Shown one piece after another: positions 20,434 through 59,084 of a DNA stretch of 64,000 nt. Every line of letters starts with the position of its first letter. Within the stretch, counting starts at the first letter, position 1. The stretch spans positions 224,001 to 288,000 of the forward strand of contig JBGARZ010000012.1 in the NCBI GenBank assembly GCA_044229975.1. The letters run 5' to 3'. Source of the DNA: Polyangiales bacterium. GTDB taxonomy: Bacteria; Myxococcota_A; Polyangia; Polyangiales; Ga0077539. The position numbers were made by a program, and so were the translations under genes. Below the pieces are notes generated by a model. The model ran no database searches. It was not told where the DNA came from and saw only the letters and a program-made list of their open reading frames with translations.

Positions 20434-20437
20434 CCCT

Positions 20438-20911: not shown

Positions 20912-20919
20912 GTCACGCT

Positions 20920-22763: not shown

Positions 22764-22789
22764 CGTGAAGTTGGCCTTTGCTCGAAACT

Positions 22790-41813: not shown

Positions 41814-42626
41814 CTACGGGGTGAGCACTTCCACGAACTCTGCGACCACCCGCACCTCGGCGGCGTCGCTCTCGCGAAGCTCGATGGGCTTGTACTCGGC
41901 GTTGTCGGGGAGCAGGCGCACCCGCCTCGGGGAGAGGCGCTCGAAGCGCTTCACGGTGTAGCTGGTTCCGGTGTCGGCGTCGTGGATGCCACCGTGCTGG
42001 ACGAGCAGGGTGCGACCCTGGAGGTCATCGGGCAGCCGCATGTTGAAGAGGCAGTGCGACCCGTCGGGTATGCGGGGCTCCATGGAGCGGCCGACGACAC
42101 GCGCGACGAAGAGGTTCTTGTGGGCTCTGCGTGATCGGCCCAGCGAGACCCAGGTGACGGTCGGGTCGGTGGGGCCGGGCATGAAGCCGCCTGCGGCGAG
42201 GTCGATGCCGATGAGCGGGACACACGTGACGTAGCGCTCCGTCGCGCGGGGGTGGACGACCTTGAGCGGTGCATCGTCCGCGGCGTCGTCGGCGACGGTG
42301 CGCGGGCTCTGTTGGGCGGCGAGCAGGAGCGCTTCGAGGGCGGCGGCAGTGAGGCCGCGGGTCGCGTCGATGAGGGCGGCGCGGGTGCCGTGCTCGGGGA
42401 AGTTCACGAGGTCGAGCACCTCGACGTTGAGCCGATCGGCGATGGCCTTGAGCGACTGGATGGTCGGGCGAACGCGGCCGTTCTCGATGTCGGAGAGGTG
42501 GCCCTTGGCGATGGTGTCGCTCTCGTGGGCGAGCTTCTCCAGGGTCTTGCCGCGCTCCAGTCGGAGTCCCCTCACCCGCCGACCGATGGCCTCCGAGAGT
42601 GGATCAGGCTCGTCCAACCTCGGCAT
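41814..42626 (-). CDS. XRE-family HTH plus S24 peptidase (CI/LexA-like) repressor
   Basis: IGRRVRGLR...LSDIENG HTH; AAG cleavage-site-like motif; VVGRSMEP (Ser) and TVKRF (Lys) dyad. Confidence 0.9.
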   Translation of the reverse strand: MPRLDEPDPLSEAIGRRVRGLRLERGKTLEKLAHESDTIAKGHLSDIENGRVRPTIQSLKAIADRLNVEVLDLVNFPEHGTRAALIDATRGLTAAALEALLLAAQQSPRTVADDAADDAPLKVVHPRATERYVTCVPLIGIDLAAGGFMPGPTDPTVTWVSLGRSRRAHKNLFVARVVGRSMEPRIPDGSHCLFNMRLPDDLQGRTLLVQHGGIHDADTGTSYTVKRFERLSPRRVRLLPDNAEYKPIELRESDAAEVRVVAEFVEVLTP

Positions 42627-42766: not shown

Positions 42767-43708
42767 ATGGCCGCCGGAAATGCGCGAGGAGCCACCGAGG
42801 GCGGGCGGCGAGAGGTGGGTTCGACGGTGTCCTTCTCCGGGCACGAGAGCTTCCCGCTGCGCTACGGATGGCCGAAGAAGTGCGTCGACGCGGTGGCGAA
42901 AGACCCCGACGTCTTCAACCGCGACGAGGCCATGGTCACGCTCGGCGTCGGCAAGAACATGGTCAAGGCCATCCGCCACTGGGGCCTCGCCACCCGGGTC
43001 ATCGAGGCCCGCGGCCGCACCCTCCAGGTGTCTGCCCTGGGTCACGCGCTCTTCGACGACGACGGCGCTGATCCCTTCCTCGAAGACCCGCGCACCCCGT
43101 GGTTGCTTCACTGGTTCATCAGCACCCACGCCGATCGCGCCACCACCTGGAGCTGGTGCTTCGGATCGCTCCAGCGCCAGGGCTTCACCCGCGACGACCT
43201 GCTGCGCGACCTCCAGGCCGCCCACGTCTCCGCCCGCACCACGCCGGCGACCCTCGCCCGCGACGTCGAGGTCTTCCTGCGTACGTACACACCCGCCCGC
43301 GCGACCCGCGCCGTCGCCATCGAGGACACCCTCGACTGCCCGCTGGTCGAGTTGCGCCTCCTTCGCGAAGACGTCGCCGAGCGGCGCTATGAGTTCGTTC
43401 GGGGGCCGAAGCCTACCCTCGACGACGTCACCTTCGGCTTCGCGGTGCTGGAGTTCTGGCAACGCGTCGCACCCGAGCGAGAGACGCTCAGCGTCGACGA
43501 CCTCGCGCGCCACCCGGGGTCGCCCGGCCGGGTGTTCCGGCTCGATGATGACTCGCTCGCGGCGCGCCTCGAACACGTTGTCCGCTGGTCGCACGGCGCG
43601 CTTCTGCACGACGACACCGCGGGCGTCCGGCAGCTCCTTCGCAAGAAGCGCGTCGACCCGGTGGCGTGGCTACTGACGGAGCTGCGGCGAGAGGGCGCAC
43701 GCGCGTGA
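42767..43708 (+). CDS. sspB: DUF4007 family protein (SspB-like)
   Basis: FSGHESFPLRYGWPKK, LGVGKNMVKAIRHW, DPFLED..T.WLLHW, SPGRVFRL; start uncertain (42767 or a later GTG). Confidence 0.9.
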   Translation: MAAGNARGATEGGRREVGSTVSFSGHESFPLRYGWPKKCVDAVAKDPDVFNRDEAMVTLGVGKNMVKAIRHWGLATRVIEARGRTLQVSALGHALFDDDGADPFLEDPRTPWLLHWFISTHADRATTWSWCFGSLQRQGFTRDDLLRDLQAAHVSARTTPATLARDVEVFLRTYTPARATRAVAIEDTLDCPLVELRLLREDVAERRYEFVRGPKPTLDDVTFGFAVLEFWQRVAPERETLSVDDLARHPGSPGRVFRLDDDSLAARLEHVVRWSHGALLHDDTAGVRQLLRKKRVDPVAWLLTELRREGARA

Positions 43709-46700
43709 CGCGGCCCGGTGATCTGTTCGAGGTGCAGCGGAGGTTCTTCCGCTCGGTACATCTCGCGACCGATTCGCAGCGCCACGACGCGAGCGAGGGC
43801 TACGTGCTCACGCCGCTCGGACGAGGAACCCTCGGGCGCATCCTCGACGGCCTCGGCGAGGGGCGCACCGAGCGGGCATGGACGCTGACGGGCCCCTACG
43901 GCGTCGGGAAGTCGGCCTTCGTGGTGCTGCTCGCGCAGCTTCTGTGCGCGGGCTCCGACGCGAGCACCAACACCGCGATGCGGGTGCTGCACGACGGCGA
44001 GCGGACGCTGGAGCGGCGCTTTCACAAGCTGCGCGACGGCAACCGCGGCTTCTGCCCGGTGCTCGTCAGCGGAACCTACGGTCCCCTCCTCCCCCCTCTC
44101 CTCGAAGCCGTCGAGCGCTCGGTGCTCGCGATGACCCGCACGAGCGCCCGGCAGCAACAGTTCTTGAAGGAGCTTCGCTCGCTGCGCTCGAGCCGCGCGA
44201 AGGCCGCCGAGCTGCACCGCCGCGTGGTGCGACTCTTCCAGGACCTCACCGAGCTGGTGGGGCAGCGCCACGGCGGCGTGCTGCTCGTGGTCGACGAGCT
44301 CGGCAAGTGCCTGGAGTACGCCGCGCGAGGAGCGGGCCACGCCGACGAGGTGTTTCTCCTGCAAGAGCTCGCCGAGGCGGCGTCGCGCAGCGGAGAGCGC
44401 CCGATGGTGGTCGTCACGCTCCTGCACCAGGCCTTCGATCGATACGCCAAAGACCTCTCCGCCGAGACGCGCGCCGAGTGGTCGAAGGTGCAGGGCCGCT
44501 TCGAGGACGTCGCCTTCCTCGACGCCCCCGGTGAGCTGCTGCGCCTCGCAGCGCGCACCCTCCACCGCCGCGCGCCCTCCACCGCCGCTCGCTACCAGCA
44601 CTGGGACGCCCTCGCCGAGAAGGCCATCGCGCTCGGGCTCGCTCCGCCCGAGCAGGGCCCGACCTTGCGTCAGCTCGCGCCGTTGCACCCCACCGTTGCG
44701 CTGCTTCTGCCGTCTCTCTGCCGCGGTCCGCTCGCGCAAAACGAGCGGTCGCTCTTCGGCTTCCTGACCTCCACGGCCGACGGGGCCTTCGGCGCCTTCC
44801 TCGCGGCCGACCACGCATCGAGCGCGCCCTCGTACACCCTCGACCAGCTCTACGACTTCATCGTCGCAACCCTCGGCCCCGCGCAGTACACGCTCGCCGC
44901 GGGTCGCCGCTGGGCGGCCATCGACGAGGCCGTTGCCCGTCTGTCCGGCGACGAGCCCGCCCTCTCGGCGCGGCTGCTCAAGGCCATCGGGTTGCTCGGT
45001 CTGTTGGGCTCGCGTGCGGTGCGATCGTCGCGCGAGACGCTGTGCTTCGCGCTCGTCGACGAGGTCACTTCCGAAGCGGAAGTAGGCGCCGCGCTCGATC
45101 GGCTCGCGGCGGCGTCGCAGGTGGTGTTTCGTCGGCACAGCGACGCGTACGCGCTGTGGGAGGGCAGCGACGTCGACCTCGACCAGCACTTCGACGAGGC
45201 CCGCCAGCGGCCGCCCGGTCTGGAGGAGGTGTCGGCGCTGCTCGGCGAGCGGATGCTCTTGCGTCCGTACATCGCGCGGCGGCACTTCTTCGAGACGGGG
45301 ACGCTGCGGCACTTCGACGTGACGTTCCGCACGTCCAATGGGGTGTCGTCAGCGCTCGCGGACGACGAGCTCGACGGGGCCGACGGGCGCATCGTGTACC
45401 TGCTACCGGAGGGGTCGGAGTCGCACGACGACCTCACGGGCCTGGCCGTCGGGGCGGCGCGGCGAGCGGACGTGGTGTTTGGTGTTCCGCGCGAGGCGAG
45501 GCAGCTCCTGGCGGGGTTGCATGACTGGTGCGCGTGGGAGTCGGTGCGCAGCCACGTAGGGGCGCTGGCGAACGATCCAGTGGCGCGGCGCGAGCTGTCG
45601 GCGCGGATCCACTTCGCCAACGACCGGCTCGACGCGGCGGTGCAGTCCTGCTTCGGGCTCGCGGGCGGAGCGCGGGTCGACTGGGTTCACGATGGAGCCC
45701 CGACGGGGTGGAGCGGCGCGCGGGCGCTCTCGCGGGCGCTGTCGGCGGTGTGCGATCGGACCTTCCCCGAGGCGCCGGTGGTGCGAAACGAGCTGCTCAA
45801 CCGTCGCTCGCTCTCGTCCGCGGCGGCGGCGGCGCGGCGCTCGTTGCTCGACGCGATGATGGCGCACCCGCACGAGGCCCGACTGGGCATCGAGGGGACC
45901 CCGCCGGAGTTCAGCATGTACGCGTCGGTGCTCGCCGCCGGGGGCCTGCACCGCGAGCGCGACGGGCGTTGGTCGTTTGGTCCGCCGCCGGAGGACGACC
46001 CGCTGCGGCTGCGGCCGGCGTGGGATCGCATCGAGCAGTTTCTCGACACCACGGAGGACGGACAGCGGCCCGTCCGTGAGCTCTTCGACGCGCTGGCGCG
46101 CCGGCCCATCGGGCTGCGCGAGGGTCCGGTGCCGGTGTTGTTCTTTGCGGTGGTGTTGTCGACGCCCGGCGAGGTGGCGCTCTTCGAGGACGGGAGCTTC
46201 GTGCCCGAGCTGAGCGACGCGGTGGTCGAGCGGCTGTTGCGTCGCGTCGATCACTTCACGGTGGCGCGGCATCGGCTCGACGGTCACCGGCTGGCGGTGC
46301 TGGGTGCGCTGCGCTCGACGCTGGGGTTGGAGGGTGAGCCCGAGGGGGCGATCGCGACGGTGCGGGCCATCGTACGGAAGGTGGGGCAGCTCCCGCGGTA
46401 CAGCCGGAGCACACGCCAGGTGGGGGCGGCGGCGTTGGCGGTGCGCGAGGCGATCCTCGGGGCGCGCGACCCGTTGCGGTTGTTGTTCCGTGATCTGCCG
46501 ACGGCGCTCGGACTCCCGGTCGTCGACCGCGGCGAGAGCGGTGACGTCGGAGCGTACCCGGCGCAGATGGCGGCGGCGTTGGGTGAGCTGGCGGGAGCGC
46601 ACCCGGCGCTGCTCGACGCGGTCGAGCGCAAGGTGGCCGCGGCGCTGGAGGTGTCGGGAGAGGGCGCGTTTTTGCGGGCGGAGCTGACGGCGCGGGCGCG

Positions 46701-47076
46701 GCGGGTGGCGGGGGTGGCGAGCGACCTGCGCTTGAAGGCTTTTCTCGGGCGGACCATGGAGGAGCGGGCGTCGCGGACGGACTGGCTGGAGGGCGTCGCG
46801 ATGGTGGTGGGCAACCGCCCTCCGTCGGAGTGGACCGACGGCGAGGTGGCGCGCTTCGAGGTGGGCCTGGAGGAGGTGCGGATGATGTTCCAGCGGGCCG
46901 AGGAGCTCATGACGGTGCCGCGCGCGCGGGTGATGAAGGTCGATGAGCCGGGGGCGCTGGAGGGGGCGGAGCGAGAGATCTTGCGGCTGCTGGAGGGGCG
47001 ATTCGGGGGCGAGCGCGGGGCGTGGCGGGCGGCGCTGGAGCGAGCGTTGAACGCGGCGCAGGAGGCGGGGCGGTGA
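43705..47076 (+). CDS. sspC: Large P-loop ATPase (SspC-like)
   Basis: FFRSVHL..D, Walker A GPYGVGKS, Walker B LLVVDELGKCLE, LQELAE, LHQ, EWSKVQGRF, QNERSLF; GTGA overlaps on both sides. Confidence 0.85.
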   Translation: MTRPGDLFEVQRRFFRSVHLATDSQRHDASEGYVLTPLGRGTLGRILDGLGEGRTERAWTLTGPYGVGKSAFVVLLAQLLCAGSDASTNTAMRVLHDGERTLERRFHKLRDGNRGFCPVLVSGTYGPLLPPLLEAVERSVLAMTRTSARQQQFLKELRSLRSSRAKAAELHRRVVRLFQDLTELVGQRHGGVLLVVDELGKCLEYAARGAGHADEVFLLQELAEAASRSGERPMVVVTLLHQAFDRYAKDLSAETRAEWSKVQGRFEDVAFLDAPGELLRLAARTLHRRAPSTAARYQHWDALAEKAIALGLAPPEQGPTLRQLAPLHPTVALLLPSLCRGPLAQNERSLFGFLTSTADGAFGAFLAADHASSAPSYTLDQLYDFIVATLGPAQYTLAAGRRWAAIDEAVARLSGDEPALSARLLKAIGLLGLLGSRAVRSSRETLCFALVDEVTSEAEVGAALDRLAAASQVVFRRHSDAYALWEGSDVDLDQHFDEARQRPPGLEEVSALLGERMLLRPYIARRHFFETGTLRHFDVTFRTSNGVSSALADDELDGADGRIVYLLPEGSESHDDLTGLAVGAARRADVVFGVPREARQLLAGLHDWCAWESVRSHVGALANDPVARRELSARIHFANDRLDAAVQSCFGLAGGARVDWVHDGAPTGWSGARALSRALSAVCDRTFPEAPVVRNELLNRRSLSSAAAAARRSLLDAMMAHPHEARLGIEGTPPEFSMYASVLAAGGLHRERDGRWSFGPPPEDDPLRLRPAWDRIEQFLDTTEDGQRPVRELFDALARRPIGLREGPVPVLFFAVVLSTPGEVALFEDGSFVPELSDAVVERLLRRVDHFTVARHRLDGHRLAVLGALRSTLGLEGEPEGAIATVRAIVRKVGQLPRYSRSTRQVGAAALAVREAILGARDPLRLLFRDLPTALGLPVVDRGESGDVGAYPAQMAAALGELAGAHPALLDAVERKVAAALEVSGEGAFLRAELTARARRVAGVASDLRLKAFLGRTMEERASRTDWLEGVAMVVGNRPPSEWTDGEVARFEVGLEEVRMMFQRAEELMTVPRARVMKVDEPGALEGAEREILRLLEGRFGGERGAWRAALERALNAAQEAGR

Positions 47077-47882
47077 GCGCCACGGAGAAGCCGGTGCGGC
47101 ACGTGCTGGGGTTGTCGGGAGGGAAGGACTCCTCGGCGCTGGCGATCTACATGCGCGAGCGGGTTCCGGAGATGGAGTACGTCTTTTGCGATACGGGGAA
47201 GGAGCTCCCCGAGACGTACGAGTTTCTCACGAAGATGGAGGCGTATCTCGGCAAGCCGATCCAGCGGCTGATGAGCGAGCGGGACTTCGATCACTACCTG
47301 GATGTGTTCAATGGGTATCTCCCGTCGAGCCGGATGCGGTGGTGCACGCGGCTGCTGAAGCTGAAGCCCTTCGAGCAGTACGTGGGCGACGACCGGGTGG
47401 TGAACTACGTGGGGATTCGCGCGGACGAGCAGCGCGAGGGGTACATCTCGACGAAGCCCAACATCACGTCGGTGTTTCCCTTCCGGGAGGACGGGCTGGT
47501 GAAGGCCGACGTGCTTCGGATATTGGAAGAGAGCGGGGTGGGGATTCCGGGGTACTACCGGTGGCGGTCGCGGTCGGGGTGCTCGTTCTGCTTCTTCCAG
47601 CGGAAGGAAGAGTGGGTGGGGCTCAAGCGGGAGCACCCGGACTTGTTTGAAGAGGCCAAAGGCTACGAGAAGACGGACGCGACGACAGGGGAGCGGTTCA
47701 CGTGGCGCAAGGGCGAGACGCTGGACGAACTGGTGGCCAGGGAAGAGGCCCGGGGCGGGGAGGAGAAGCGGCCCGAGCGCGCGGTGAAGCGGAAGAATCT
47801 GCCGCTGGTGAGCGTGTTTGCGGACGAGGGCGATGGGGACGAGGACGAGGATGAGCGGCCGTGTCTGATTTGTGAGTTGTAG
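47073..47882 (+). CDS. sspD: PAPS-reductase family protein (SspD/DndC-like)
   Basis: PP-loop SGGKDS, RWCTRLLK, GIRADE, SGCSFCFFQ, C-terminal CLIC. Confidence 0.88.
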   Translation: MSATEKPVRHVLGLSGGKDSSALAIYMRERVPEMEYVFCDTGKELPETYEFLTKMEAYLGKPIQRLMSERDFDHYLDVFNGYLPSSRMRWCTRLLKLKPFEQYVGDDRVVNYVGIRADEQREGYISTKPNITSVFPFREDGLVKADVLRILEESGVGIPGYYRWRSRSGCSFCFFQRKEEWVGLKREHPDLFEEAKGYEKTDATTGERFTWRKGETLDELVAREEARGGEEKRPERAVKRKNLPLVSVFADEGDGDEDEDERPCLICEL

Positions 47883-47893
47883 GGAGGACGGGC

Positions 47894-48535
47894 TTGAACT
47901 TCCCATTTCCTAGTTACCGCTTTGACGAGCTTGACCAAGCTCCTGATCAACCTGGCATTTACGCTTGGTACCATGAAGTCCGCCTCACCAGTGCCGACAT
48001 CGACCAGTTTGTGCAGCAGATCAAGAAGCTAGAGACCGGGGCGCGACCGCCAGTGGTCGAGAGCTACCTCCGCGAGCGAGTCTTCGATCCGTACAAGGAG
48101 TCACCGTACCAGATCGCGCTGCGGGGAGGGCTGAAGCCGGAGTACGGCGGGCACGTCAACCACCAGCCTCGGGTTTCGAAGACGACGATAGAGACGCTGG
48201 CAGAGAAACCCGACGGGATTCGCGAGATTCGTGATCTGCTGAAGCGAATGGTGCCGGTGTTTGCGAGTCCTATCTACATTGGGGTAGCGACCCGCTCCCT
48301 GCGCACCCGCCTATTGCAACACCAGACACTTCTGGTCGAGTATCGAGAAACGCCTGCGGCAGCAATCCCTGACGACGAAGACCACTCCTTTGCCTATGAG
48401 GCGATCTGCGAGCGCGGTTTGTCGCCTTTAGAGCTGATTGTCTACGCCATGGAGACGCCGGTGTCGCGCGAAATGCAGCTTGCCGCCGAGTACATCTTTA
48501 ATCGCATCAACTACCCGCTCTGCGGGCGAAGGTAA
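47894..48535 (+). CDS. GIY-YIG-like nuclease with long insertion
   Basis: PGIYAWY...PIYIGVA..SLRTRL.QH...E...N; TTG start after GGAGG. Confidence 0.75.
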   Translation: MNFPFPSYRFDELDQAPDQPGIYAWYHEVRLTSADIDQFVQQIKKLETGARPPVVESYLRERVFDPYKESPYQIALRGGLKPEYGGHVNHQPRVSKTTIETLAEKPDGIREIRDLLKRMVPVFASPIYIGVATRSLRTRLLQHQTLLVEYRETPAAAIPDDEDHSFAYEAICERGLSPLELIVYAMETPVSREMQLAAEYIFNRINYPLCGRR

Positions 48536-48540
48536 CGCTG

Positions 48541-50754
48541 ATGATCCCGAAAGCACCCAAGAAGCAGAGCGCGCTCGACCTGACCATCAAAGGATCCATG
48601 GGCGATTTCGTCGTATCGCAAGGAGGAACTTCCTCGGTGCGAGTCAACTATCTCCTGAGCCACATCGGGCTGGAGCTCGAAGGCGATCATCAAGAGCGCC
48701 TGCTGTCACGCATCGCCCCGTTTCGTGAGGTATTCGATACCCGAACGTTGGACTTCGACCAGATCATGCAGCGAGACATCGACGACTCGCGCGTCTCGGC
48801 TGACCTTATCCGATATCTACTAGAGAAGGCCAATACGGGATTGGTCAAGCTCTTCCCACCGATCATCGTAGTGCTGCTACCGACGGACGCGGGTGGCAAG
48901 CCCGCGTCCTTCTACCCACCGGTCGAGGGCGCGACCATTGAACAAGATGAGTCTCAATTCGAGGTGGTGCGCTCTGGAGCAGTCGGGCAGGAGGTATTTG
49001 AACTGCGACGCTGGCTTGTCGACGGGATGCCCCAGTCGCACGATTTCGCCGAGTTGCGCATCAACACCAATCGCTGCAAGTTGGTCATCGTCGATGGCCA
49101 GCACCGCGCGATGAGCTTGCTGGCGTTGTACCGCAACATCAAGGGCTGGCCCGAGCGCACCCGCAACGTTGAACCCTATTACAAAATCTGGACGCGTGCC
49201 CGGATCATGGATTTCGACCTGCACCGCGCCAAGATGCCGATCATGTTCTGCGTCTTTCCACAGCTCGACGGGCAGCAGGACAACGCCCAGCTCAAGGTTC
49301 ATGAGGCGTGTCGATCGATCTTCCTGGCTCTGAACAAGAACGCTCGCCCGGTTACGCGTTCGCGCAACATCTTGCTGGACGATCGGGATGTGGTCGCAAT
49401 GTTCCTGCGCGAGATCCTCGGATACATCAAGGACCGCAACATTGGCACCATGGAGAGCATTCGGCTGCCTGCGGTCGAGCTAGACAATGACAAGAACCAA
49501 TCGGTGTTGAAGTCACCGGTCGCCATCACTGGCGTTACCCATCTCAACGGGCTCGTCGAGCGCCTGATGCTCGCGATTCCCCCTCAGCCGGGGCTGACGG
49601 TCAAGGCACAGAACCTCTGGCTGAGCACGCGTCTCGACAAGTGCTTTGCTCGTCTGGGGGTTCAGGATCAACTCACGCCTGACATCGAGAAACGTGTACG
49701 TCGGGACGCGTGCGATCGCGAAGTGATGTCGGTTCTGCGGAGCGCCTTCGAGGTGGTCTATCGGCCGGTGCTTGTTCGCGGACTCGACGCTTTCGCGCCG
49801 TATCGCGTTCACCACGAGGCGTCTACGGCCATGCACATGAAGTTGGACGCAGGAGCAACGTCCGATTTCTATCGAGCGATCCTGTTTGAGGGCGAAGGCA
49901 TGAACCGGGTCTTCGAGGACTTCCAGAAGCGTCTCGGAGAAATGCTGGACGACGACGAGTTCGCGACGCCCGAGCTCAAGCAGACGCGCGACGAGTTCAC
50001 CGGTCGACAGGCCAGCCTCGCCAAGGAGGTAGAGGAATTTCAAACTGACCGTGTGACCCGACTGCTCGGTGACGTGCCGAAGGAACTCGCGGGTAGTCCG
50101 AAGATCCAAAAATGGATCAACGACGACCTCTATGGAGACACGCTGACGACCGCAGCGTTTCAGAACGCGCTGTTTTTGACGTTTTTCGGAGTCATCGAAC
50201 AGATCAACAGCGACCGATCGAGGCCACCCGCTGCGGCGCCCGCGCTGACGGCGGTAGAGATCGGCGAGATGTTCGAGGGCTACCTCTCAGACCTCAACGC
50301 GTTCTTCTCTCCCAAAAAGCGGGCGGGATTGGAGAACCTCGTTGCGGTGTTCCACGGCGAGCTTCGTTCTGATGGCGCGCTGATCGCGACCAACGCCAAC
50401 CTCAAGAAGATCCTGTTGCCCACGGAGCTCAAGCCCGATGAGTGGCCGAAGTTCCGCGCCATGTTGCAAGAACTCTGGCACCCGGCCCTGCCAGAAGCGC
50501 GCAGCCTGTTGGTGGCACACCGAGACATGGTGCGACGACAAGCGCTCGAACGTTACATCGCCCGGGCGGTCACTGAGTTCTGTCGGGACAAGGCGATTCG
50601 CGAGAAGGACCTTGGCGCCCCTGAACGTGAGCAGATCGAGCAGACCTGCACCGACCGGCTCGTGAAGGGGCTCTCGGCGCTAGGTTCTAAGGTGAACGCG
50701 GACGACCTACTGAAGAGCGTGCGCGCGACGCCCCCAGAGCAAACGGAGGAGTGA
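48541..50754 (+). CDS. DGQHR (DndB/ParB-like) domain protein with large C-terminal extension
   Basis: MQRDID..RV, FPPII, IVDGQHR, FLALNKNARPV; 5 bp after the GIY-YIG gene. Confidence 0.88.
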   Translation: MIPKAPKKQSALDLTIKGSMGDFVVSQGGTSSVRVNYLLSHIGLELEGDHQERLLSRIAPFREVFDTRTLDFDQIMQRDIDDSRVSADLIRYLLEKANTGLVKLFPPIIVVLLPTDAGGKPASFYPPVEGATIEQDESQFEVVRSGAVGQEVFELRRWLVDGMPQSHDFAELRINTNRCKLVIVDGQHRAMSLLALYRNIKGWPERTRNVEPYYKIWTRARIMDFDLHRAKMPIMFCVFPQLDGQQDNAQLKVHEACRSIFLALNKNARPVTRSRNILLDDRDVVAMFLREILGYIKDRNIGTMESIRLPAVELDNDKNQSVLKSPVAITGVTHLNGLVERLMLAIPPQPGLTVKAQNLWLSTRLDKCFARLGVQDQLTPDIEKRVRRDACDREVMSVLRSAFEVVYRPVLVRGLDAFAPYRVHHEASTAMHMKLDAGATSDFYRAILFEGEGMNRVFEDFQKRLGEMLDDDEFATPELKQTRDEFTGRQASLAKEVEEFQTDRVTRLLGDVPKELAGSPKIQKWINDDLYGDTLTTAAFQNALFLTFFGVIEQINSDRSRPPAAAPALTAVEIGEMFEGYLSDLNAFFSPKKRAGLENLVAVFHGELRSDGALIATNANLKKILLPTELKPDEWPKFRAMLQELWHPALPEARSLLVAHRDMVRRQALERYIARAVTEFCRDKAIREKDLGAPEREQIEQTCTDRLVKGLSALGSKVNADDLLKSVRATPPEQTEE

Positions 50755-50777
50755 CCGCCACAGGGTGACCCATCACC

Positions 50778-51113
50778 TCAAGCCGCCGCGTAGTCCCCAA
50801 ACCGTCGCCGGCTCAGGTGCTGAAACGCCAGCACGATGCGGTCCTTGGGGACGCCGGCCGCTTCGAGGTCGCGCGCGATGCCGCGCTCGGTTCCGTCGTG
50901 CTGGATCCATATCTTGCCGTCGATGATATCGACGTGAAGTAGCGGCGCGTGGACGCGCTTCGGCCCCTCCCACCCAACGGCCATGAGCAGGTAGTGGTCC
51001 TGCGCGCGGTCGAAAACCGTCGAGAGCGCGATGTCCCCGTAGGACACCGGCACACGCGTTTCCTCAGTCAAAAGGCTCTCGATCAGATCGCGCCACTCGG
51101 CTGGGGCATCCAT
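50778..51113 (-). CDS. xisI: XisI family protein
   Basis: FDR..DHYLLM.VGW, HVDIIDGKIWIQHDGTE.GIA.DL..AGVPKDRIVLAF. Confidence 0.93.
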   Translation of the reverse strand: MDAPAEWRDLIESLLTEETRVPVSYGDIALSTVFDRAQDHYLLMAVGWEGPKRVHAPLLHVDIIDGKIWIQHDGTERGIARDLEAAGVPKDRIVLAFQHLSRRRFGDYAAA

Positions 51114-51517
51114 CGGACGATCCTTTCCTGCGCGGGGTCGAAACACAAGATGCGATCGAGCGCGTGTTGCAACGCCACCTCGCCAATCGGCTCCTGAAAC
51201 AGGGTGTTCCACACGTCGTCGGGTACCGCAACGAAGAGCATGCGCCCGGGGTCCTGCTGCGCAAGCAGAGCGCGGTAGAGCACGTGCTGACCCACGGTCT
51301 GTTCCAGTGCCTCTACATCGGAGGGACCGCCGAAGGTCTTGATCTCCACGGCAATGCGCAGAGTGCCCTTCTCCGCTGCGAGCATCCGCTCGGCGCCGAG
51401 GTCGACGTAAAGGTTGCGGCGACCGGACGTCACCCGCAGCGGATCATGCGTCACCGTCCACCCATCGTGGATCAGCGCGTTTTTCAGTGCAGCGTGCAGA
51501 CGGTCTCTTGCGGGCAT
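51083..51517 (-). CDS. xisH: XisH family protein
   Basis: MPARD..H..KNAL..DGWTVTHDP, VDLGAE..LAAEK, IAVEIKTF, GQ..LYR. Confidence 0.93.
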   Translation of the reverse strand: MPARDRLHAALKNALIHDGWTVTHDPLRVTSGRRNLYVDLGAERMLAAEKGTLRIAVEIKTFGGPSDVEALEQTVGQHVLYRALLAQQDPGRMLFVAVPDDVWNTLFQEPIGEVALQHALDRILCFDPAQERIVRWMPQPSGAI

Positions 51518-51580
51518 GACTTGTGATCCAGTGCGAGGCTGTCCGTCGCACGCCCACGGCATGCCGGTCAACGCGCCCCC

Positions 51581-52420
51581 TCACCGCGCGCACCGAAACC
51601 CCACGAACGCGCTCCGGTACCCCATCTCGTAGCGCCCGCGCCCCAGCAGCTCGCCCGCCGTCCTGTCGCCGTCCGTCCACCCGTGCCCGCGCACCACGTG
51701 CGCCACCCTCACCGTGTCGTCGGGCCGCAGCACCCGGTCGGCCGTCCACTCCGCGACGTTGCCCGCCACGTCGAGCACCCCGTACGCTGACGCGTCCGCC
51801 GCGAAGCTCCCCACCGGCGCCGTCGCCCCGAAGCCGTCGTCCGCCGTCCGCCACGACCGGTGCTCCGCCCCGTGGCTCGCGAACCACCGCACGCACTCCG
51901 GCCCGCACAGGCTCGCCCGCGCCGCGTCCGCCGTCCGCTCGTCGCCCCATGGGTAGCGCCGCTCGTCGTCGCCCCGCGCCGCGTGCTCCCACTCCGCCTC
52001 CGTCGGCAGCCGCGCCCCGCGCCACCGGCAGTACGCGTCGGCGTTGCGCCAGTCGACGCAGTTCATCGGGTGCGCCTCCCCTCCGGCCCGCCCGAGGTTG
52101 CACGCCGGGTCGAGCGAACGCCGCACCGCCGCCGTCACCCCCGCCCACGCGACGGCGCGCTGGGGCGCGCAACGCCCCGCCGCCACGCAGGCCCGGTACG
52201 CCCGCACCGTCACCTCCGTGCGGTCGATGCAGTACGCCGCGAGCTCCACCTGCCGACGCGGGTTGTCCGGGCCGTGCACGTCGTCGCGCGAGCCGATCCA
52301 CGCCCGCGACGCGGCTAACCCCACCATCCCGTCTGGGCACTCCACCCCGCTCTGCGCCTCGACCGCGCCCGCGCCGAGCACCAGCGCCACCAGCGCCACC
52401 AGCACCACCCACGCCCTCAC
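51581..52420 (-). CDS. Secreted SUMF1/FGE-sulfatase domain protein
   Basis: Signal peptide, CP.GM, IDRTEVT, P.NCVDW..A..YC, RLPTEAEWE.AARG, GNVAEW, GFRCA; GTG overlaps the methyltransferase stop. Confidence 0.9.
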   Translation of the reverse strand: MRAWVVLVALVALVLGAGAVEAQSGVECPDGMVGLAASRAWIGSRDDVHGPDNPRRQVELAAYCIDRTEVTVRAYRACVAAGRCAPQRAVAWAGVTAAVRRSLDPACNLGRAGGEAHPMNCVDWRNADAYCRWRGARLPTEAEWEHAARGDDERRYPWGDERTADAARASLCGPECVRWFASHGAEHRSWRTADDGFGATAPVGSFAADASAYGVLDVAGNVAEWTADRVLRPDDTVRVAHVVRGHGWTDGDRTAGELLGRGRYEMGYRSAFVGFRCAR

Positions 52421-54477
52421 GCCACCACCCGCATCCCCGCGGGCGCCGTCATCCCCGCGAGCACCCCCCGCATCGCCTCCAGCCCCGGCCCGTACCCGCT
52501 CCAGTCCACCCCTTCGCCCGCCGCCACCCGCAGCGCCTCGTCGAACCCCCGCTGCCCCGCGTACCCCTCCATCGCCGCGTGCATGTACCGCGACTTCATC
52601 CACAGCGGCTGCGGCTCATACTCGCCCCCGTATGCGTAGTAGCTCACCTGCTGCCGCCGCAGGTCGATCTTCACCCGCTCCACCATCAGCGGAACCGCGC
52701 TCCCCTCGTAGTCGTCGTACCGCATCAGGCTCACCTTCCCGGAGCCGATGTGCAGCTTCACCACGTCGGCGTTTTGCGCCTCGCCGTACAGCTTGCCCGC
52801 GCACCCCACGTAGACCCTCAGCGCCGGCGGCAGCTCGTTGACCAACCTTGCATCCACCTGCAACGACTCGCCCGCCACCAGCGCCCCGATGCCCTGCGCC
52901 GCGGCCGCCTCGCACGCGGCCTCCACCGCCCGCGCGTCGCGCAGCGAAAACAGTAGCCGCTGCCCCGCCTCCGCCGCCTTCGCCTGCGACCCCCAGAACT
53001 CCCGCACATCCCTCGCCGCCCGCGCGCCCAACGCCCCCGCCGACCGCCTCCGCTCGAAGAGGTTCAACGCAAAGAACACCGACAGATCCCCCACGCGCCG
53101 CACCCGCGCCTGCTCCAGCTCTTCCGCGCCGCGCTCCTCCGTCAGACGCCGCAGCACCACTGCCGCCGACGCCACGTCGCGCGTCAGTTCGCCCATCCGC
53201 GCGAACTCCTCCTCGCGCGGAGCCCTCCCGATCGCCACGCACGCCCGCCAGAACTCCTCCACCAGCTCGGCGTGACGCTCCCATCGCGTCGGCGCCTTCG
53301 GCTTCGCCACCCGCGGCGCGCGCGGCTCTCGCGCCGGTCGTTCCACCGCGGGCCGCACCGGCATCGCCCCGAAGCGACCCGACGACCGCTGCCGCTCTTC
53401 GAGGAAGTCCTGCTCGTCCTCGTCGCGACGAAACACGAAGAACAACCCCGGCCCCACCGACACCGGCTCGCGACCGAGCGCCGCCGCGACGTAGTCGCCG
53501 AGCTCTTCGTGGCCGAAGTACTTCTGGAAGGTGCTGCGCGACGTGAGCACCCCATCACCAAACGCCCGGTGCTGCTCGCTCGCCGCGCGCCCGCCGAGAA
53601 TCGCCGACACCGCCAGCACCTTGCGGGCGAGCCCGTACGCGCGGGTGAGCGCCTCGCGCCGCTCGTCGGGGTCTTCGATGACGTTGAGGACGAAGCCCAG
53701 GTTGACCACGTCGGCCTCGGCGCGCGGAGCATCGGGGCGGTAGTACGGGTCCCAACCATCGGCCGTGACGCCGCTCGCCGCGAGCGCCGCGAGGTCGTCG
53801 CCGCGCCCGCAGCCGTAGTCGAAGACGCTCAGCGCCGCCCCGAGGTACCCGTGCCGCCACAGCGCCTGCATCGGCGTCGACAGCGCGCGTCGCGCCATGG
53901 CCGTGCGGTGACGCAACACCTCGGCCGACTCGACGGTCTCCAACGGCACCAGCGAGTGCCCCTCCACCCGCAGCCCCTTCGCCCGAACGATCTCCTCCCA
54001 CTGCCTCCGATGCCCGATCACCAATGGGTTGGCGAAGAGACCATGGCCCTCGGCCGCCGCCGTGAGCGCCGCAAACGCCGCGCGATGCGGGTCGTCGGTC
54101 GGTAGCAGCAGCTCCTTGCGGTGCAGCACCGGGGGATTGCGCGCGAGGTCGTAGGTGCGGTGCTCGCAGCGACGCTCGGCGAGGTCGATGGTCCAGGCGT
54201 CGGAGAGCAGCGGGAAGGGGCGCTCGAAGAAGTCAGGGTACGAGAGCAGCGACAACCGCCGCGCGTCGGGCGCCAGCTTGAGCACGTTGAAGCCCTCAGC
54301 CGGACCACCCACCGCCGCCACCTCTGCGCGCAGGTACGCCAGCGTCTCGTCGGGCACCGCGCTCAGATGCACGTAGCGCGCGCCGCCGACCACCTTGCCC
54401 GCGGTGATGCCACCGACGTGCGACCGCCACCGCCCCAACGCCTCGCCGTCTTCATCGCGGGGATCGGTCGTCGCCAT
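52417..54477 (-). CDS. DNA phosphorothioation-associated putative methyltransferase
   Basis: RHRTAM.R..LS.P, FDYGCGRGDD, GWDPYY, DVVNLGFVLNVIED, DGVLTSRSTFQKYF, NPPVLHRKE, LRVYVGCA..LYG, DVVKLH..SGKVS. Confidence 0.9.
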   Translation of the reverse strand: MATTDPRDEDGEALGRWRSHVGGITAGKVVGGARYVHLSAVPDETLAYLRAEVAAVGGPAEGFNVLKLAPDARRLSLLSYPDFFERPFPLLSDAWTIDLAERRCEHRTYDLARNPPVLHRKELLLPTDDPHRAAFAALTAAAEGHGLFANPLVIGHRRQWEEIVRAKGLRVEGHSLVPLETVESAEVLRHRTAMARRALSTPMQALWRHGYLGAALSVFDYGCGRGDDLAALAASGVTADGWDPYYRPDAPRAEADVVNLGFVLNVIEDPDERREALTRAYGLARKVLAVSAILGGRAASEQHRAFGDGVLTSRSTFQKYFGHEELGDYVAAALGREPVSVGPGLFFVFRRDEDEQDFLEERQRSSGRFGAMPVRPAVERPAREPRAPRVAKPKAPTRWERHAELVEEFWRACVAIGRAPREEEFARMGELTRDVASAAVVLRRLTEERGAEELEQARVRRVGDLSVFFALNLFERRRSAGALGARAARDVREFWGSQAKAAEAGQRLLFSLRDARAVEAACEAAAAQGIGALVAGESLQVDARLVNELPPALRVYVGCAGKLYGEAQNADVVKLHIGSGKVSLMRYDDYEGSAVPLMVERVKIDLRRQQVSYYAYGGEYEPQPLWMKSRYMHAAMEGYAGQRGFDEALRVAAGEGVDWSGYGPGLEAMRGVLAGMTAPAGMRVVA

Positions 54478-54554
54478 GGCTTCCGCGGTCGATGGTACTT
54501 GAAGCCTACCGGGTCGATCTGGCGCCTTGACGCGACCTCTCCGCTCACCCTTCC

Positions 54555-56690
54555 ATGCCGACACTCCTGATGCGCTCCCACCGCGCGATGCGCCTCGCCT
54601 GGACCGTCGTTCTTGCCCTGCTCGCGGGTGTCTCGGCGTCGCGTCCCTTCCGCGAGACGGACGTCTTCTGGCACCTCTCCCTCGGCCGCGCGGTGCTCCG
54701 CCACGGCGCCCGCGTCGTCCCCGAACCCCACGCCTTCCCCGCCTACGGTCGCCCCTGCACCGCCCAGGAGTGGCTCTGGGACGTCGCCACCTTCGCCCTC
54801 CACCGCGCCCTCGGCTGGACCGCCCTCGTCTGGCTCATCATCGCCCTCGCCGTCGCTACCGCAGTGCTCGTCGCGCGCGCCCTCTCCGCCGGTCGCGACG
54901 ACCCCCACCCCGGCGCCTTTGCCCTCGTCTCCGCGCTCGCCATGGTCGGCGCCCGCAACGCCCTCCACGAGCGCCCCGAGTGCGCCTCGATGGTGCTGCT
55001 CCCGGCGTTCATGCTCGTCGCCCGCGCGTACGCCGACGCACCCGCGCGCCGCCTGCGCCTCGGCGCCGCCCTCGTCGCGCTCGAACTCCTCTGGGCGCAG
55101 GTGCACCCCACCTTCGTCCTCGCGCCCGCCGTCTTCGTCCTCACCGTGCTCTTCGGGCGACCCATCGATCGCGCCTCCCTCCGCGACCACGGCCTCGTCG
55201 CCGCCGCGCTCGTCGTCGGCCTCGCCAGCAGCGCGTTCGGGCTCCGCGTCGTTCACAACGTGCTCGCCCACGCGGGCGGCGATGCCGCGCAGCACATCAC
55301 CGACATGGCCGCGCCGACGTGGGCGTTCTTCCACCCGCTGCGCATGGAACCGGGCGCCCTCTTCGCCGCGCTGCTCTCGCTCGGCGTCGCGGGGATGCTC
55401 GTCACCCGGCGTGTCCCGTGGCGCGAGCTCTCCCTCGCCGCCTTGGGAACCGCCCTCGTCGCCACCGCCGTCCGCGGCGTCGCGCCCGCCAGTGTCCTCG
55501 CTGCGCCCTTCGCGCTCGATGGTGCGCTCGCTCTCTTCGCGCTGGCGTCGTCGCGTGTGCAGGCGGCGCTCATCCCCGTCGCCCTCGCCGCGGCCGGTGC
55601 GCTGCTCTTCCACGATGCCAGGCCGTCGCTGCCGTTCTTCCCGCCGTCGGCCGCTACGGCGCTCGCACCCGGCTGGTATCCGCGCGCCGCGGCCGCGTGG
55701 CTGCGCCGCGTCCCGCCCGGGACCCGGGTGTTCACCACCTACGCGTCGGGAGCGCCGCTCGGCTTCTGGCTCGACGGGCGCGTCCACACCTTCGTCGACT
55801 CCCGAACGCCGCTCTACTTCGACGACGCCGAGTACGGCCTCGCCCGCGCCGCGTGGTTTCAATCCGGCGCCCTCGCGCGCACCGTCGATCGCTACGCCAC
55901 GCCCGTCGCCGTGGTCGAGCGCGACGCCGCGGTGTGCGAGCTGCTGCGCGCCGACGCACGGTGGTACCCGGTGGTCGTCGACGCCCGCACCACCACCTTC
56001 GTGCGCCGCGAAACGCCCCTCGACGCCACGCCTGTCACCCGCATGGCGGCGTGCGGCGCCGACTACCTCGCGCCCGACGCCTGCGCTGACGGTGGCGTGG
56101 TGCTGAGCAACGAGATCGCCGCCATCGCTCGTGACGCCGACGCTGCCTTCGTGCGCTACCTCCGCGCCGAGCGCGCGGTGCGATGCCGCATTGCTGGGGT
56201 GACGGTCGCGGCCGTGCGGGCGATGGTTCCGTCGGCGGAGGAGGCGGCGGTGTTTGCGGTGCAGCGCGACACGCTCATGGCGAAGGTGCTGGTCGCCGAA
56301 GGGCGCCTCGACGAGGCCTACGAGCTGGCCGTCGACATGGTGCGCCGCGGCGACGCGCTCGCATATCACACGGTGCTGGCACCGCTTGCCGCGCGACGCG
56401 ATCAGACGCGACTACGTGGGCTGCTCGAACCGGTGGCGCGCACCCTGGGCGACGACACGCCGGGGGATGTCAGGGCGCTGCTGGCGCAGCTCTGCGTCGC
56501 ACGTCGCGACGTCGAGGGGGCCCGCTTCCACGCGCTGCGGGCGGCGGCGATGGGGTCGGCGTCGGCGGTTCCGACGCTGTGCTGGTTGCGGGCGCGTCAC
56601 CCGGATGCGGCGGCGCGTGCCGACGCCGACGCGTGGCTCGCGACGATGCAGCGGGAGCGACCGGATCTCACCTGTCCTGCGCGGCGGTGA
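54555..56690 (+). CDS. Polytopic membrane protein, GT-C glycosyltransferase-like
   Basis: DVFWHLSLGR, QEWLWDV, ERPE, LWAQVH, FVDSRT after and between many TM helices; helical C-terminal domain. Confidence 0.7.
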   Translation: MPTLLMRSHRAMRLAWTVVLALLAGVSASRPFRETDVFWHLSLGRAVLRHGARVVPEPHAFPAYGRPCTAQEWLWDVATFALHRALGWTALVWLIIALAVATAVLVARALSAGRDDPHPGAFALVSALAMVGARNALHERPECASMVLLPAFMLVARAYADAPARRLRLGAALVALELLWAQVHPTFVLAPAVFVLTVLFGRPIDRASLRDHGLVAAALVVGLASSAFGLRVVHNVLAHAGGDAAQHITDMAAPTWAFFHPLRMEPGALFAALLSLGVAGMLVTRRVPWRELSLAALGTALVATAVRGVAPASVLAAPFALDGALALFALASSRVQAALIPVALAAAGALLFHDARPSLPFFPPSAATALAPGWYPRAAAAWLRRVPPGTRVFTTYASGAPLGFWLDGRVHTFVDSRTPLYFDDAEYGLARAAWFQSGALARTVDRYATPVAVVERDAAVCELLRADARWYPVVVDARTTTFVRRETPLDATPVTRMAACGADYLAPDACADGGVVLSNEIAAIARDADAAFVRYLRAERAVRCRIAGVTVAAVRAMVPSAEEAAVFAVQRDTLMAKVLVAEGRLDEAYELAVDMVRRGDALAYHTVLAPLAARRDQTRLRGLLEPVARTLGDDTPGDVRALLAQLCVARRDVEGARFHALRAAAMGSASAVPTLCWLRARHPDAAARADADAWLATMQRERPDLTCPARR

Positions 56691-56695
56691 GGCCG

Positions 56696-57655
56696 TCAGC
56701 CGAGCAGCTCGTCCGCCGACGCTGCCGTGAAGAGCCGCTCCGACCACGTCGTCAGCCGATCGACGTCCGACTCCGTGGCGACGAGTGCTGCCTGCTCTTC
56801 GGTGAGCGCGATGCCCCGCAATCGGCACCCCTCCAGGAGGTTGCGCGCCGTCACCACCTGCATCCGCGCGAGCTGGTCGACCACGTCCGAGCGCTGTCGC
56901 TCCGCTTCCGAGCGCTGCCGCTCCGCTTCCGAGCGCTGCCGCTCCGCCTCGTCGAGCGCTCCCTGTCGTTCGTCTGCGAGGGATTGCAGGCGGGCCACGA
57001 GCTCGCTTTCACTCGGCACCATGGACTGGTTGACGAAGAACCGCAGCCGCAGTTGCACGATCGCGAGATCGAGCCCGAGCACATTCGATCGCAGATACCC
57101 GCCCTGCGGAACAATCGGTTGATAGGTGCGGGTCCCGGGAGGCAGGCGCCATCCACGGAGGACGCCGCGCCGACAGTCGAAGCTGAAGTATTCGGGGATG
57201 CCCACGCGGGCGTAGTCGCGGACGTTCTCCACGACGTCCTTGTGCTTGCGCCCGAGGTTGCGCACCTCGACCACGAAGTCGACGCCGCGCTTCTCGTTCT
57301 GGACGATCCAGCTCTCGGGCTCGTAGTCCGGGTCGCAGTCGAGCACCGCCATCACGTCGGGCACGATGACCGCCTCGCCCGGATAGAACACCCCGAGCTC
57401 ACTGGCGAGCAGCACCCCGCGTCCCAGCCGACGGAAGTGAGCGTCGAGGTCGGCGGCAATACCCATCTTGCGCTTGGAGTGCTTCACGCCCTCGGTCATC
57501 GCCTCGCGGTACTCGTCGAGCACGGCCTCGATGCGCTCCACCACGGCGTCGCGCTCGCTCGGCGACAACCGACCCCAGGTCTCCTCGTCCGGGAACACGA
57601 TGCGCGGGTCGTCCCACACCCGAGGCGTCGCCGTGCGCTGTGATCCGAAGGTCAT
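56696..57655 (-). CDS. Uma2 family endonuclease
   Basis: IVPDVMAV, FVVEV, YARVGIPEYF; C-terminal coiled coil with EAERQRS three times (21-nt tandem repeat). Confidence 0.9.
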   Translation of the reverse strand: MTFGSQRTATPRVWDDPRIVFPDEETWGRLSPSERDAVVERIEAVLDEYREAMTEGVKHSKRKMGIAADLDAHFRRLGRGVLLASELGVFYPGEAVIVPDVMAVLDCDPDYEPESWIVQNEKRGVDFVVEVRNLGRKHKDVVENVRDYARVGIPEYFSFDCRRGVLRGWRLPPGTRTYQPIVPQGGYLRSNVLGLDLAIVQLRLRFFVNQSMVPSESELVARLQSLADERQGALDEAERQRSEAERQRSEAERQRSDVVDQLARMQVVTARNLLEGCRLRGIALTEEQAALVATESDVDRLTTWSERLFTAASADELLG

Positions 57656-57722
57656 GGTCGGTCCATGGTACCGCCGCGGGACGCTCGTTCGCCATCGGTC
57701 ATCGACGTGATACGAGCGCGCG

Positions 57723-59084
57723 GTGCATCGACCACGGCGCCCTCTCTCCGTCGCCCTCCTCTTCGGCAGCATCGTTGTCGGTTGCGTGGACGACCCACCC
57801 ACGACCGACGCTGCGCTTCAAGACGACGCCGCAGACGTAGCCCCGCTGGACGTCACGCGTAGCGATGTCTCCGTCGTCGATGTCTCCGTCGTCGACGTCC
57901 CCGTCGTCGACGTCCCTGCCCTCGACACACCCTCTCCGCACGACGTCGCGTTTGCGCCCGATGCCTCCATCGACATTGGCGTCGCGCCCGCGCTCGATGT
58001 CCCCGTCGACATCCCCATCGATGCCCCCGACGCGCCCACTCTCGACCGCCCCGACGCCCCCGCAGTCGACGTCCCCATCGACATCCCCATCGACGCCCCG
58101 CGCCCCGACCCGCTCGCCACGCTCGGTGAGTGTCTCGGCTCCTCCGCCCCGCTCACCATCTCGCGCCAGATGCCCTTCGTGTCGGTCCCCATTGGTGGGC
58201 TCCGTGGTGAGTTCGTCCTCGACCACGGAACCACCTTCTCCAGCATCGACCTCGCCGCCTTCCCCTCGCCCGGCCCCGCCACCTCGGGCTGCGACCCCAC
58301 GCGCCTCGGCGTCACCTGCACCGTCGACGCCTTCTCCTTCTTCGCCCCCGCCTCGCCCGTGCGCCTCGTCACGGCCGACTTCCGCGCCGTCGCCGCCTCC
58401 GTCCGCCAGGCCGGCATCGTCGGAACCGACTTCACCAGCCTCCGCGTCGTCGCCCTCTCCTACGCCACCGCGCGCCTCTTCGTCAGCAACACCACACCCC
58501 GCTGCACCGACGCGGCGTGGCGCTCGGCCGGCTTCGTCGCGCTCTCCTCCGCGGGCTTCTTCAGCGACGACCTCTCCACCCTCAACCCCATGACCACCGT
58601 CGACTCCAGCGCCGCGCCCGCCGCGCGCGTCCCCAACGTGCCGACGGTCACCGTGCGCCTCGCAGACACCACCGCCGTCGCCCAGCTCGACACCGGCTTC
58701 GACGATGCGCTCGTCCCCTTCTCGGTCAACGTCAATGACGCCTTCTACCGCGCCATCATCGCGCGTGACCCCGGCGCCCTCGTGCGCGACGCCGCCCACG
58801 ACCTCGCGCTCACCACCTGCGTCGTCGGCCTGAGCGAGTCCGTCGACGCGTACTCCATCGGTGCAGGCCGCGCGCTGGAGTTCGTCGACGACCGCGGCGC
58901 CGTCGCGAGGCGCTACCCCGGAGCGACCATCTTCGTGAAGCGCACCCCCACCGCCGCTCGCACCTGCGGCGGCATCGGAACCTGGACCGCTCCCGCCGCC
59001 CAGATCGCGGGGTCGTTCTTCGTGGACTTCGGGGCGGTGGTGTTCGACCCGTTCAGCGCGCGCGTGTGGGTGCAGCCGCGGTGA
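57723..59084 (+). CDS. Lipoprotein with aspartic-protease-like motifs
   Basis: IVVGC lipobox, DVP/DAP stalk, FVLDHGTTFS, GIVGTDF, AQLDTG. Confidence 0.6.
   Translation: MHRPRRPLSVALLFGSIVVGCVDDPPTTDAALQDDAADVAPLDVTRSDVSVVDVSVVDVPVVDVPALDTPSPHDVAFAPDASIDIGVAPALDVPVDIPIDAPDAPTLDRPDAPAVDVPIDIPIDAPRPDPLATLGECLGSSAPLTISRQMPFVSVPIGGLRGEFVLDHGTTFSSIDLAAFPSPGPATSGCDPTRLGVTCTVDAFSFFAPASPVRLVTADFRAVAASVRQAGIVGTDFTSLRVVALSYATARLFVSNTTPRCTDAAWRSAGFVALSSAGFFSDDLSTLNPMTTVDSSAAPAARVPNVPTVTVRLADTTAVAQLDTGFDDALVPFSVNVNDAFYRAIIARDPGALVRDAAHDLALTTCVVGLSESVDAYSIGAGRALEFVDDRGAVARRYPGATIFVKRTPTAARTCGGIGTWTAPAAQIAGSFFVDFGAVVFDPFSARVWVQPR

Follow-up and report, generated by a model that had tools for sequence, protein, structure and literature searches.

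The stretch of 64,000 nucleotides analysed here (contig JBGARZ010000012.1 of a Polyangiales bacterium, positions 224,001 to 288,000; hereafter the window) carries an SspBCD-type operon for phosphorothioate (PT) modification of DNA. Its last two genes encode a GIY-YIG protein and an oversized DGQHR protein, which raises the question of what these two proteins do beside the modification enzymes. The pair is a real, conserved and unnamed module. By analogy with characterised systems, there is in our judgement roughly an even chance that it is an exchangeable, PT-dependent two-protein effector of SspBCD, resembling an SspE split over two proteins. The operon consists of five uninterrupted open reading frames on the plus strand, spanning positions 42767-50754:

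42767..43708, plus strand: sspB (DUF4007), gene 1, 313 amino acids (aa); PADLOC SspB 312 bits, E 8.5e-94; Pfam PF13182 271 bits
43705..47076, plus strand: sspC, large P-loop ATPase, gene 2, 1123 aa; PADLOC SspC 952 bits, E 7.3e-287
47073..47882, plus strand: sspD, PAPS-reductase-family sulfur transferase, gene 3, 269 aa; PADLOC SspD 381 bits, E 7.8e-115; Pfam PF01507
47894..48535, plus strand: GIY-YIG protein of an unnamed family, gene 4, 213 aa; motifs and predicted fold; no PADLOC model and no Pfam match
48541..50754, plus strand: oversized DndB/DGQHR (ParB-like) protein, gene 5, 737 aa; Pfam PF14072 31 bits (cut-off 29.1); PADLOC DndB E 0.003

The successive junctions are two GTGA overlaps (at positions 43705 and 47073), an 11-bp gap and a 5-bp gap, and the GIY-YIG gene has a TTG start preceded by GGGAGG. 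An original prediction, made from the window's letters, had described five same-strand genes with GTGA overlaps or gaps of 5-11 bp, and its coordinates and junctions were reproduced. It had also equated the DUF4007 protein, the ATPase and the PAPS reductase with SspB, SspC and SspD, in agreement with the PADLOC scores above and with the Pfam matches (DUF4007, PAPS_reduct). Genes 1-3 are SspB, SspC and SspD. No cysteine desulfurase is encoded at the locus itself; the host genome (93% complete), which has a single ssp locus, encodes IscS-like homologs of SspA on two other contigs, C38 (45% identity) and C31 (41%). The combination of sspBCD and iscS is reported to be sufficient for PT modification, and SspE and SspFGH are reported to function with heterologous SspBCD (PMC8092258).

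The pair recurs widely. In a scan of GTDB genomes (107 confirmed stretches, 79 loci), the GIY-YIG gene lies directly upstream of the DGQHR gene in 68 of the 79, which argues that the two are not neighbours by chance. The remaining 11 comprise five that stop at a contig edge, three with an HNH gene in the slot and three with neither. The sspD gene lies within the locus in 60 of the 68 pair loci (39 of 42 where at least 8 kb is present on both flanks), and the background frequency of SspD is 54 of 1504 sampled genomes. Four of the eight pair loci that lack sspD come from assemblies with SspD elsewhere. Genes for sspA and for a TIGR04096 homolog occur in 30 and 19 of the 79 related loci, respectively; DndC and BrxL were found in none of them. 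The hosts include Pseudomonadota, Cyanobacteriota, Actinomycetota, Myxococcota, Planctomycetota, Acidobacteriota and others. Since the pair may follow sspD, precede sspA or sspB, or face the operon convergently, its linkage to Ssp survives changes of position and orientation. The expectation that the pair would be found beside sspBCD in other genomes was therefore borne out, in several phyla and gene orders. Homologs were also found on seven plasmid records, and the two that were examined both place the pair within ssp operons. Cultured carriers are Asticcacaulis excentricus (pASTEX02) and Trichormus variabilis ATCC 29413 (plasmid A), in both cases on conjugative plasmids. A phage collection of 50,697 records contained no homolog of gene 5.

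Several variants of the arrangement were observed. At three loci that lack ssp genes nearby, the slot of the GIY-YIG gene is taken by an HNH nuclease gene (L003:3214-4452, L052:5978-7291, L004:3-482), possibly through nuclease exchange. At two others, from assemblies without SspD, genes that resemble the sulfur-binding domain (SBD) of ScoMcrA and carry HNH flank the DGQHR gene (L058:8932-9846, L069:12301-13188). A second type of pair, also near ssp genes, combines a more divergent GIY-YIG protein with a short (407-453 aa) DndB-like protein (L099:10400-12244, L110:319-2221, L073:312-2172), and L073 carries both types. In Scytonema (L023:7195-12358), two convergent GIY-DGQHR pairs from different clades follow one sspBCD.

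The trees and DNA comparisons indicate that the pair evolves independently of SspBCD. Trees were built for 46 loci, namely the window and 45 of the 48 loci with both the pair and sspBCD (two frameshifted and one partial locus were dropped). Patristic distances of the DGQHR and GIY-YIG proteins correlate at 0.97 (0.85 in the 39 main-clade loci) and those among SspB, SspC and SspD at 0.83-0.94, whereas the correlation between pair and Ssp proteins is 0.07-0.17 (0.25-0.45 in the main clade); shared ancestry inflates all of these values, and the contrast between the groups is the point. The high correlation within the pair and the low one with Ssp suggest that the pair is coupled to the shared product of the writer, without co-evolving with it, a situation like that of SspE and SspFGH. 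Similarity of the window to L088, L091 and L093 stops at the end of sspD (47882-47893), where two of the three continue with a helicase gene, and similarity to L001 and L002 is limited to 47899-50758; L017 has the same gene order as the window. GC content at third codon positions falls from 0.89-0.91 in sspB, sspC and sspD to 0.70-0.75 in the pair, and the GC content of the pair is below that of sspC in 47 of 48 loci. The GIY-YIG family is present in four of 31 genomes of the host's family, and a genome of the same genus (G433) has near-identical sspBCD and no GIY-YIG homolog. Because DNA similarity breaks there, third-position GC drops and the GIY-YIG gene is patchily distributed, the junction between sspD and the GIY-YIG gene is a module boundary.

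Enzymes in the GIY-YIG superfamily of nucleases share GIY and YIG strands, a conserved arginine, a histidine and a metal-binding glutamate. Since Pfam gave no match to gene 4, its label was examined separately through motifs and predicted fold. Among 76 homologs found, 67 were aligned with the query, and G21, Y23, Y128, G130, R139, H143 and E199 are invariant across the 68 sequences. In the GIY-YIG sequences of the loci (n=79), R139 is conserved in 79, H143, E199 and Y128 in 78 each, and Y23 in 77, two sequences being truncated at Y23 by contig ends. We take R139, H143 and E199, with the GIY and YIG residues, to be the catalytic set. An insertion of about 100 residues separates G21-I-Y23 from Y128-I-G130. 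The predicted model (predicted local distance difference test, pLDDT, 93.7) best matches the N-terminal domain of UvrC (1ycz; Z 9.1, root-mean-square deviation 2.5, 85 aligned residues), followed by I-TevI (1ln0, Z 8.8), a plant Grx N-domain (8.2), T4 EndoII (2wsh, 8.0) and Eco29kI (3mx4, 7.7). These five best matches are all GIY-YIG structures (Z 7.7-9.1), and unrelated ones reach at most 4.4. Motifs and model together identify gene 4 as a GIY-YIG protein with a long inter-motif insertion, as originally predicted, and from the conserved residues we infer a DNA-cleaving activity.

Gene 5 has 436 homologs among 7999 candidates, and the alignment was built from 60 of the 120 listed. Its three motifs are M76-Q77-R78, D185-G-Q-H-R189 and F261-x-x-L-N265, of which Q77-R78-D79, I-V-D-G-Q-H-R189 and N265 are invariant in the 60-sequence alignment; conservation of the motifs in the loci is circular, because the locus scan used two of them as patterns. 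The same three motifs are described as characteristic of DGQHR and GmrS domains (PMC4619093). Against NCBIfam, the protein scores 35.8 for the DGQHR-domain model TIGR03187 (cut-off 58.85) and 16.3 for the DndB model TIGR03233 (cut-off 328). On its sequence features gene 5 is assigned to the DndB (DGQHR) family and not to DUF262. The model (pLDDT 88.3) has a mixed N-terminal domain followed by a long helical part that belongs to no recognised family. No nuclease domain was seen in gene 5, with no HNH motif in its conserved columns and no Pfam match to one. Matches of residues 30-270 to ParB-fold chains are weak and within background (5k5d Z 5.3, PadC 5.0, KorB 4.1). Foldseek returned nothing at E 0.001 for the 737-aa model, and a PDB sequence search found no match. 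In the ESM Atlas, the best match to residues 275-737 scored 0.86, and clusters with 11% DndB were found, which we treat as a lead only. No fused GIY-DGQHR form was found among 8000 candidates of 449-2000 aa, a weak search.

The frequency of the pair among effectors was estimated from a survey that started from sspD (four phylum samples, SspD matches at E 1e-60), giving 40 loci of up to 20 kb each. Four centre genomes and ten small genomes with weaker matches were left out (three of the latter were fetched and had no sspB or sspC). Several stretches end at contig edges, 37 of the 40 have SspC, and classes were assigned by hand. This pair accounts for seven loci, of which three are distant relatives that first scored 36-75 bits and were added to the hidden Markov model later, and in L112 the GIY-YIG gene was assigned by motif and a weak Pfam match. 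SspFGH is present in nine loci, SspE in two, PbeA/C-like proteins in three, a helicase-MORC(-PLD) module in 12, a GIY-YIG protein with a shorter DndB-like protein in two, and the long protein alone in three; BrxL follows such a GIY-less large gene in two of the 40. No pair locus of the survey has SspE or SspFGH within the sequence fetched around it. SspF was found in one of 50 pair genomes, compared with nine of 33 non-pair loci (Fisher p 0.0008, a value that is overstated because of kinship and differing taxon mix). The genome-wide searches for SspF and SspE used one model each, and the SspF positive control was matched.

The effectors at this locus had been predicted to be neither SspE nor SspFGH, and this stands: gene 4 has no PADLOC match, and gene 5 matches DndB alone, weakly. 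Neither protein, nor any of nine relatives, matched PADLOC SspFGH models, and the same library found SspFGH at the nine survey loci. Defence by an sspE or sspFGH elsewhere in the genome had been raised as an alternative; searches of the 93%-complete host genome found neither SspF nor DndC, and for SspE gave nothing more than weak matches to DUF262 proteins. Its six DUF262 proteins were considered as SspE and rejected, the best reaching 38 bits on SspE models over an N-terminal stretch only.

Other modules beside sspBCD were also noted. The commonest combines an SF2 helicase with a GHKL/MORC ATPase, in some cases with PLD (L074:12270-17040, L097:12355-16912, L093:10344-13114, L088:10591-11708, L001:904-4421). 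It gives weak PADLOC matches to MzaB, PbeA and ZacB/DrmC and follows sspD in the closest relatives of the window; a GHKL/MORC ATPase also occurs in 14 of the 79 pair loci. It exceeds the pair in frequency and is a further candidate for a partner of Ssp. MORC-helicase-HKD neighbourhoods have been described, with no mention of Ssp in the part of the account available to us (PMC2292703). PbeA/PbeC-like genes (PLD-helicase, ABC ATPase) adjoin sspBCD, and not Dnd alone, in L101, L111, L113, L006, L009 and L064. A cyanobacterial SspFGH locus (L120:12255-16547) encodes a fusion of a protein kinase with SspF (1430 aa).

We favour an effector role because the genes for a nuclease and a protein with NTPase (nucleoside triphosphatase) motifs co-evolve, track the writer without co-evolving with it and are dispensable for it, and because the pair occupies the slot taken elsewhere by SspE, SspFGH or the helicase module. 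The pair most likely works like SspE; it is not a member of the SspE family. More tentatively, at a little under an even chance, it would be a third main type of effector for SspBCD, close to SspFGH in frequency and more frequent than SspE, in which a split PT reader of the DndB family uses NTP hydrolysis to gate an interchangeable nuclease (GIY-YIG, and HNH in some loci). SspBCD with a chromosomal IscS, as established for the family and with the genes present here, would write single-strand PT. By analogy, the ParB-like N-terminal domain of gene 5 may bind PT-DNA through a hydrophobic-Q-R patch (M76-Q77-R78), and R189 of the DGQHR motif may support hydrolysis of ATP or GTP; the corresponding Y30, Q31 and R32 of SspE line its PT-sensing patch (PMC9646914), and the final arginine of its DGQQR motif is required for GTP hydrolysis (PMC13251355). 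The helical C-terminal part may bind DNA and hold the nuclease. Sensing of the sulfur mark and NTP hydrolysis by the DGQHR protein would then switch on the separate GIY-YIG protein, whose conserved catalytic residues suggest that it could nick or cut unmarked phage DNA. Within such a PT-dependent scheme, activation by the mark seems slightly ahead of protection by the mark.

A number of observations weigh against an SspE-like effector. Profile comparison of gene 5 with three SspE proteins shows no similarity (hhalign probability 2.6%), the protein matches neither the PADLOC SspE models nor Pfam GmrSD_N, and its structural match to SspE (6jiv, Z 4.3 over 153 residues) is within background. The equivalence of M76-Q77-R78 with the Y-Q-R of SspE is based on motif order, without a significant alignment, and nearly all members carry Met, Leu or Ile where SspE has its tyrosine (Tyr in one and Phe in three of those listed). 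Since gene 5 is of the DndB family and has no detectable profile similarity to SspE, the phrase 'split analogue of SspE' in the original prediction applies to a correspondence between parts and does not describe one gene divided in two. The large DGQHR gene occurs without a GIY-YIG gene in six of 79 loci and three of 40 survey loci, and L046, L067, L069 and L079 have the pair in assemblies (of unknown completeness) in which SspD was not found, two of which have DndC. Exclusion of other effectors within the survey is not significant (p 0.16; 0.043 if the two short-type pairs are included, with kin that are non-independent and a view limited to 20-kb stretches), and SspE is not rarer with the pair (four of 50 pair genomes and two of 33 non-pair loci). 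Finally, independent evolution also fits a PT-independent passenger.

That last possibility, a PT-independent defence module that merely shares islands and plasmids with sspBCD and acts in a type IV-like manner on modified invader DNA (possibly foreign PT or modified bases; compare GmrSD), is unlikely in our view, although it is the best of the alternatives. It would account for the uncoupled trees, for the low GC of the pair relative to sspC, for the four assemblies without SspD, for the SBD-HNH genes that adjoin in L069 and L058, and for L002, where pair and ssp genes are on different contigs, the former having 10 kb clear to either side. It fits poorly with the presence of sspD in nearly all well-flanked loci, where no other defence family recurs so often, with how closely the pair abuts sspD or sspA across several gene orders, and with the depletion of SspF in pair genomes.

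Rather improbable is a guard, or backup suicide, effector in which the DGQHR protein restrains the nuclease as long as PT writing or NTP pools are normal and, once a phage has disabled Ssp, lets it loose on the host (abortive infection). Rakesh et al. propose such a role for DndB and stand-alone URI nucleases (PMC10853773), the two-gene order resembles that of a toxin and its partner, the nuclease is missing in L032, L058 and L075, from assemblies without SspD or DndC, and SspE is stacked with the pair in the four genomes mentioned above. Neither this genome nor most pair genomes, however, have another known effector for which the pair could serve as backup.

An accessory role in PT writing or upkeep, with a DndB-like ATP-dependent repressor and a nickase for preparing sites or mending damaged PT linkages, is distinctly improbable. 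PF14072 is above its cut-off, RefSeq labels homologs as DndB, the fold of gene 4 is closest to the UvrC repair nuclease domain and the pair frequently abuts sspA, but 33 of 40 survey loci have no pair, G433 has near-identical sspBCD without it, the TIGR03233 score is far below its threshold, the pair does not co-evolve with SspBCD, and sspBCD with iscS suffices (PMC8092258). An artefact or mis-assembly can be dismissed, because L017 keeps the identical junction order at about 70% DNA identity.

The effector reading also places the pair among known systems. With SspE it shares the writer, a putative ParB-like NTPase domain with QR and DGQxR motifs, a nuclease that would act on invader DNA and a position adjoining sspD (PMC9646914, PMC13251355), but SspE is a single DUF262 and HNH (DUF1524) polypeptide with DGQQR and Y-Q-R, whereas the pair has DGQHR and M-Q-R, lacks HNH and encodes its GIY-YIG protein in a gene apart. 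Like SspFGH, it is an exchangeable, multi-gene and taxonomically patchy partner of SspBCD (PMC8092258); SspFGH differs in having three genes with Walker A and FtsK-like domains, and the pair has no homology to it and is rarely in the same genome. DndB (PF14072, TIGR03233) has a DGQHR domain with QR, DGQHR and FxxxN motifs as well, but is about 355 aa long; gene 5 is below the equivalog cut-off and is linked to Ssp and GIY-YIG genes, not to DndC. GmrSD, Menshen NsnA and other DUF262 systems couple a ParB-like sensor with a nuclease that varies, in one polypeptide or two (PMC4619093, PMC12065111), as is proposed for the pair. They are not of the DndB family and have no PT writer, and the portions of these sources available to us name no GIY-YIG partner for DndB-like proteins. 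The URI (GIY-YIG) nucleases at Dnd borders, proposed effectors beside PT-modification genes, are, as far as described in the accessible part of PMC10853773, stand-alone and associated with Dnd, with no mention of a fixed partnership with a long DGQHR protein in Ssp loci.

We found no description of the pair in the open-access literature or among PADLOC 2.0 models, a scope that does not include Xiong 2020, the Tdp paper, current DefenseFinder models or the supplements of PMC10853773 and PMC12914056. The suggestion that the pair might be undescribed accords with this. The locus had been singled out as the window's candidate for an undescribed system; the module is indeed unnamed, but it is widespread and not special to this locus. 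An unexplained label in the discussion of PMC12914056, 'sspBCDB-brxCZL', may refer to the DndB-annotated gene. Wang et al. (2021) reported that 83.9% of 2,678 sspBCD loci have neither SspE nor SspFGH and asked about further partners (PMC8092258). The pair is a concrete and frequent candidate (seven of 40 sspD-first loci), without a PADLOC 2.0 model and with residues to mutate defined. If the effector reading is true, roughly a fifth of the ssp loci now counted as orphan would be explained, the DndB family, so far known as a repressor, would gain an effector role, and a new reader of the PT mark would provide a further stackable anti-phage layer.

Other genes occur around the operon:

41814..42626, minus strand: XRE-HTH and peptidase S24 (LexA-like) regulator; Pfam HTH_3, Peptidase_S24
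50778-51571, minus strand: XisI and XisH genes, between the DGQHR gene and the methyltransferase gene; Pfam
52417..54564, minus strand: TIGR04096 phosphorothioation-associated putative methyltransferase; 532 bits, cut-off 150
56696-57802, minus strand: putative restriction endonuclease (Uma2) containing a short heptad repeat, 2 kb past the methyltransferase gene

The methyltransferase gene, absent from the original prediction, lies 1.7 kb downstream of the DGQHR gene on the opposite strand; its reading frame was taken from the first GTG, and the true start may be about 30 codons later. TIGR04096 homologs occur in 13 of 40 survey loci, whichever effector is present. XisI and XisH are missing at the equivalent place in the matching DNA of L056 and are probably a later insertion. 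A promoter scan gave no sites, predicted terminators were no more numerous than expected by chance, and no tRNA genes were found in the window. The XRE-S24 gene is divergent from sspB, a position kept in the close relatives L017, L088 and L093; it is possibly a regulator of the operon and, being LexA-like, could connect it to DNA-damage signalling. A second low-GC stretch lies at positions 17000-24000 of the window (0.58-0.64, compared with 0.71), with few long open reading frames.

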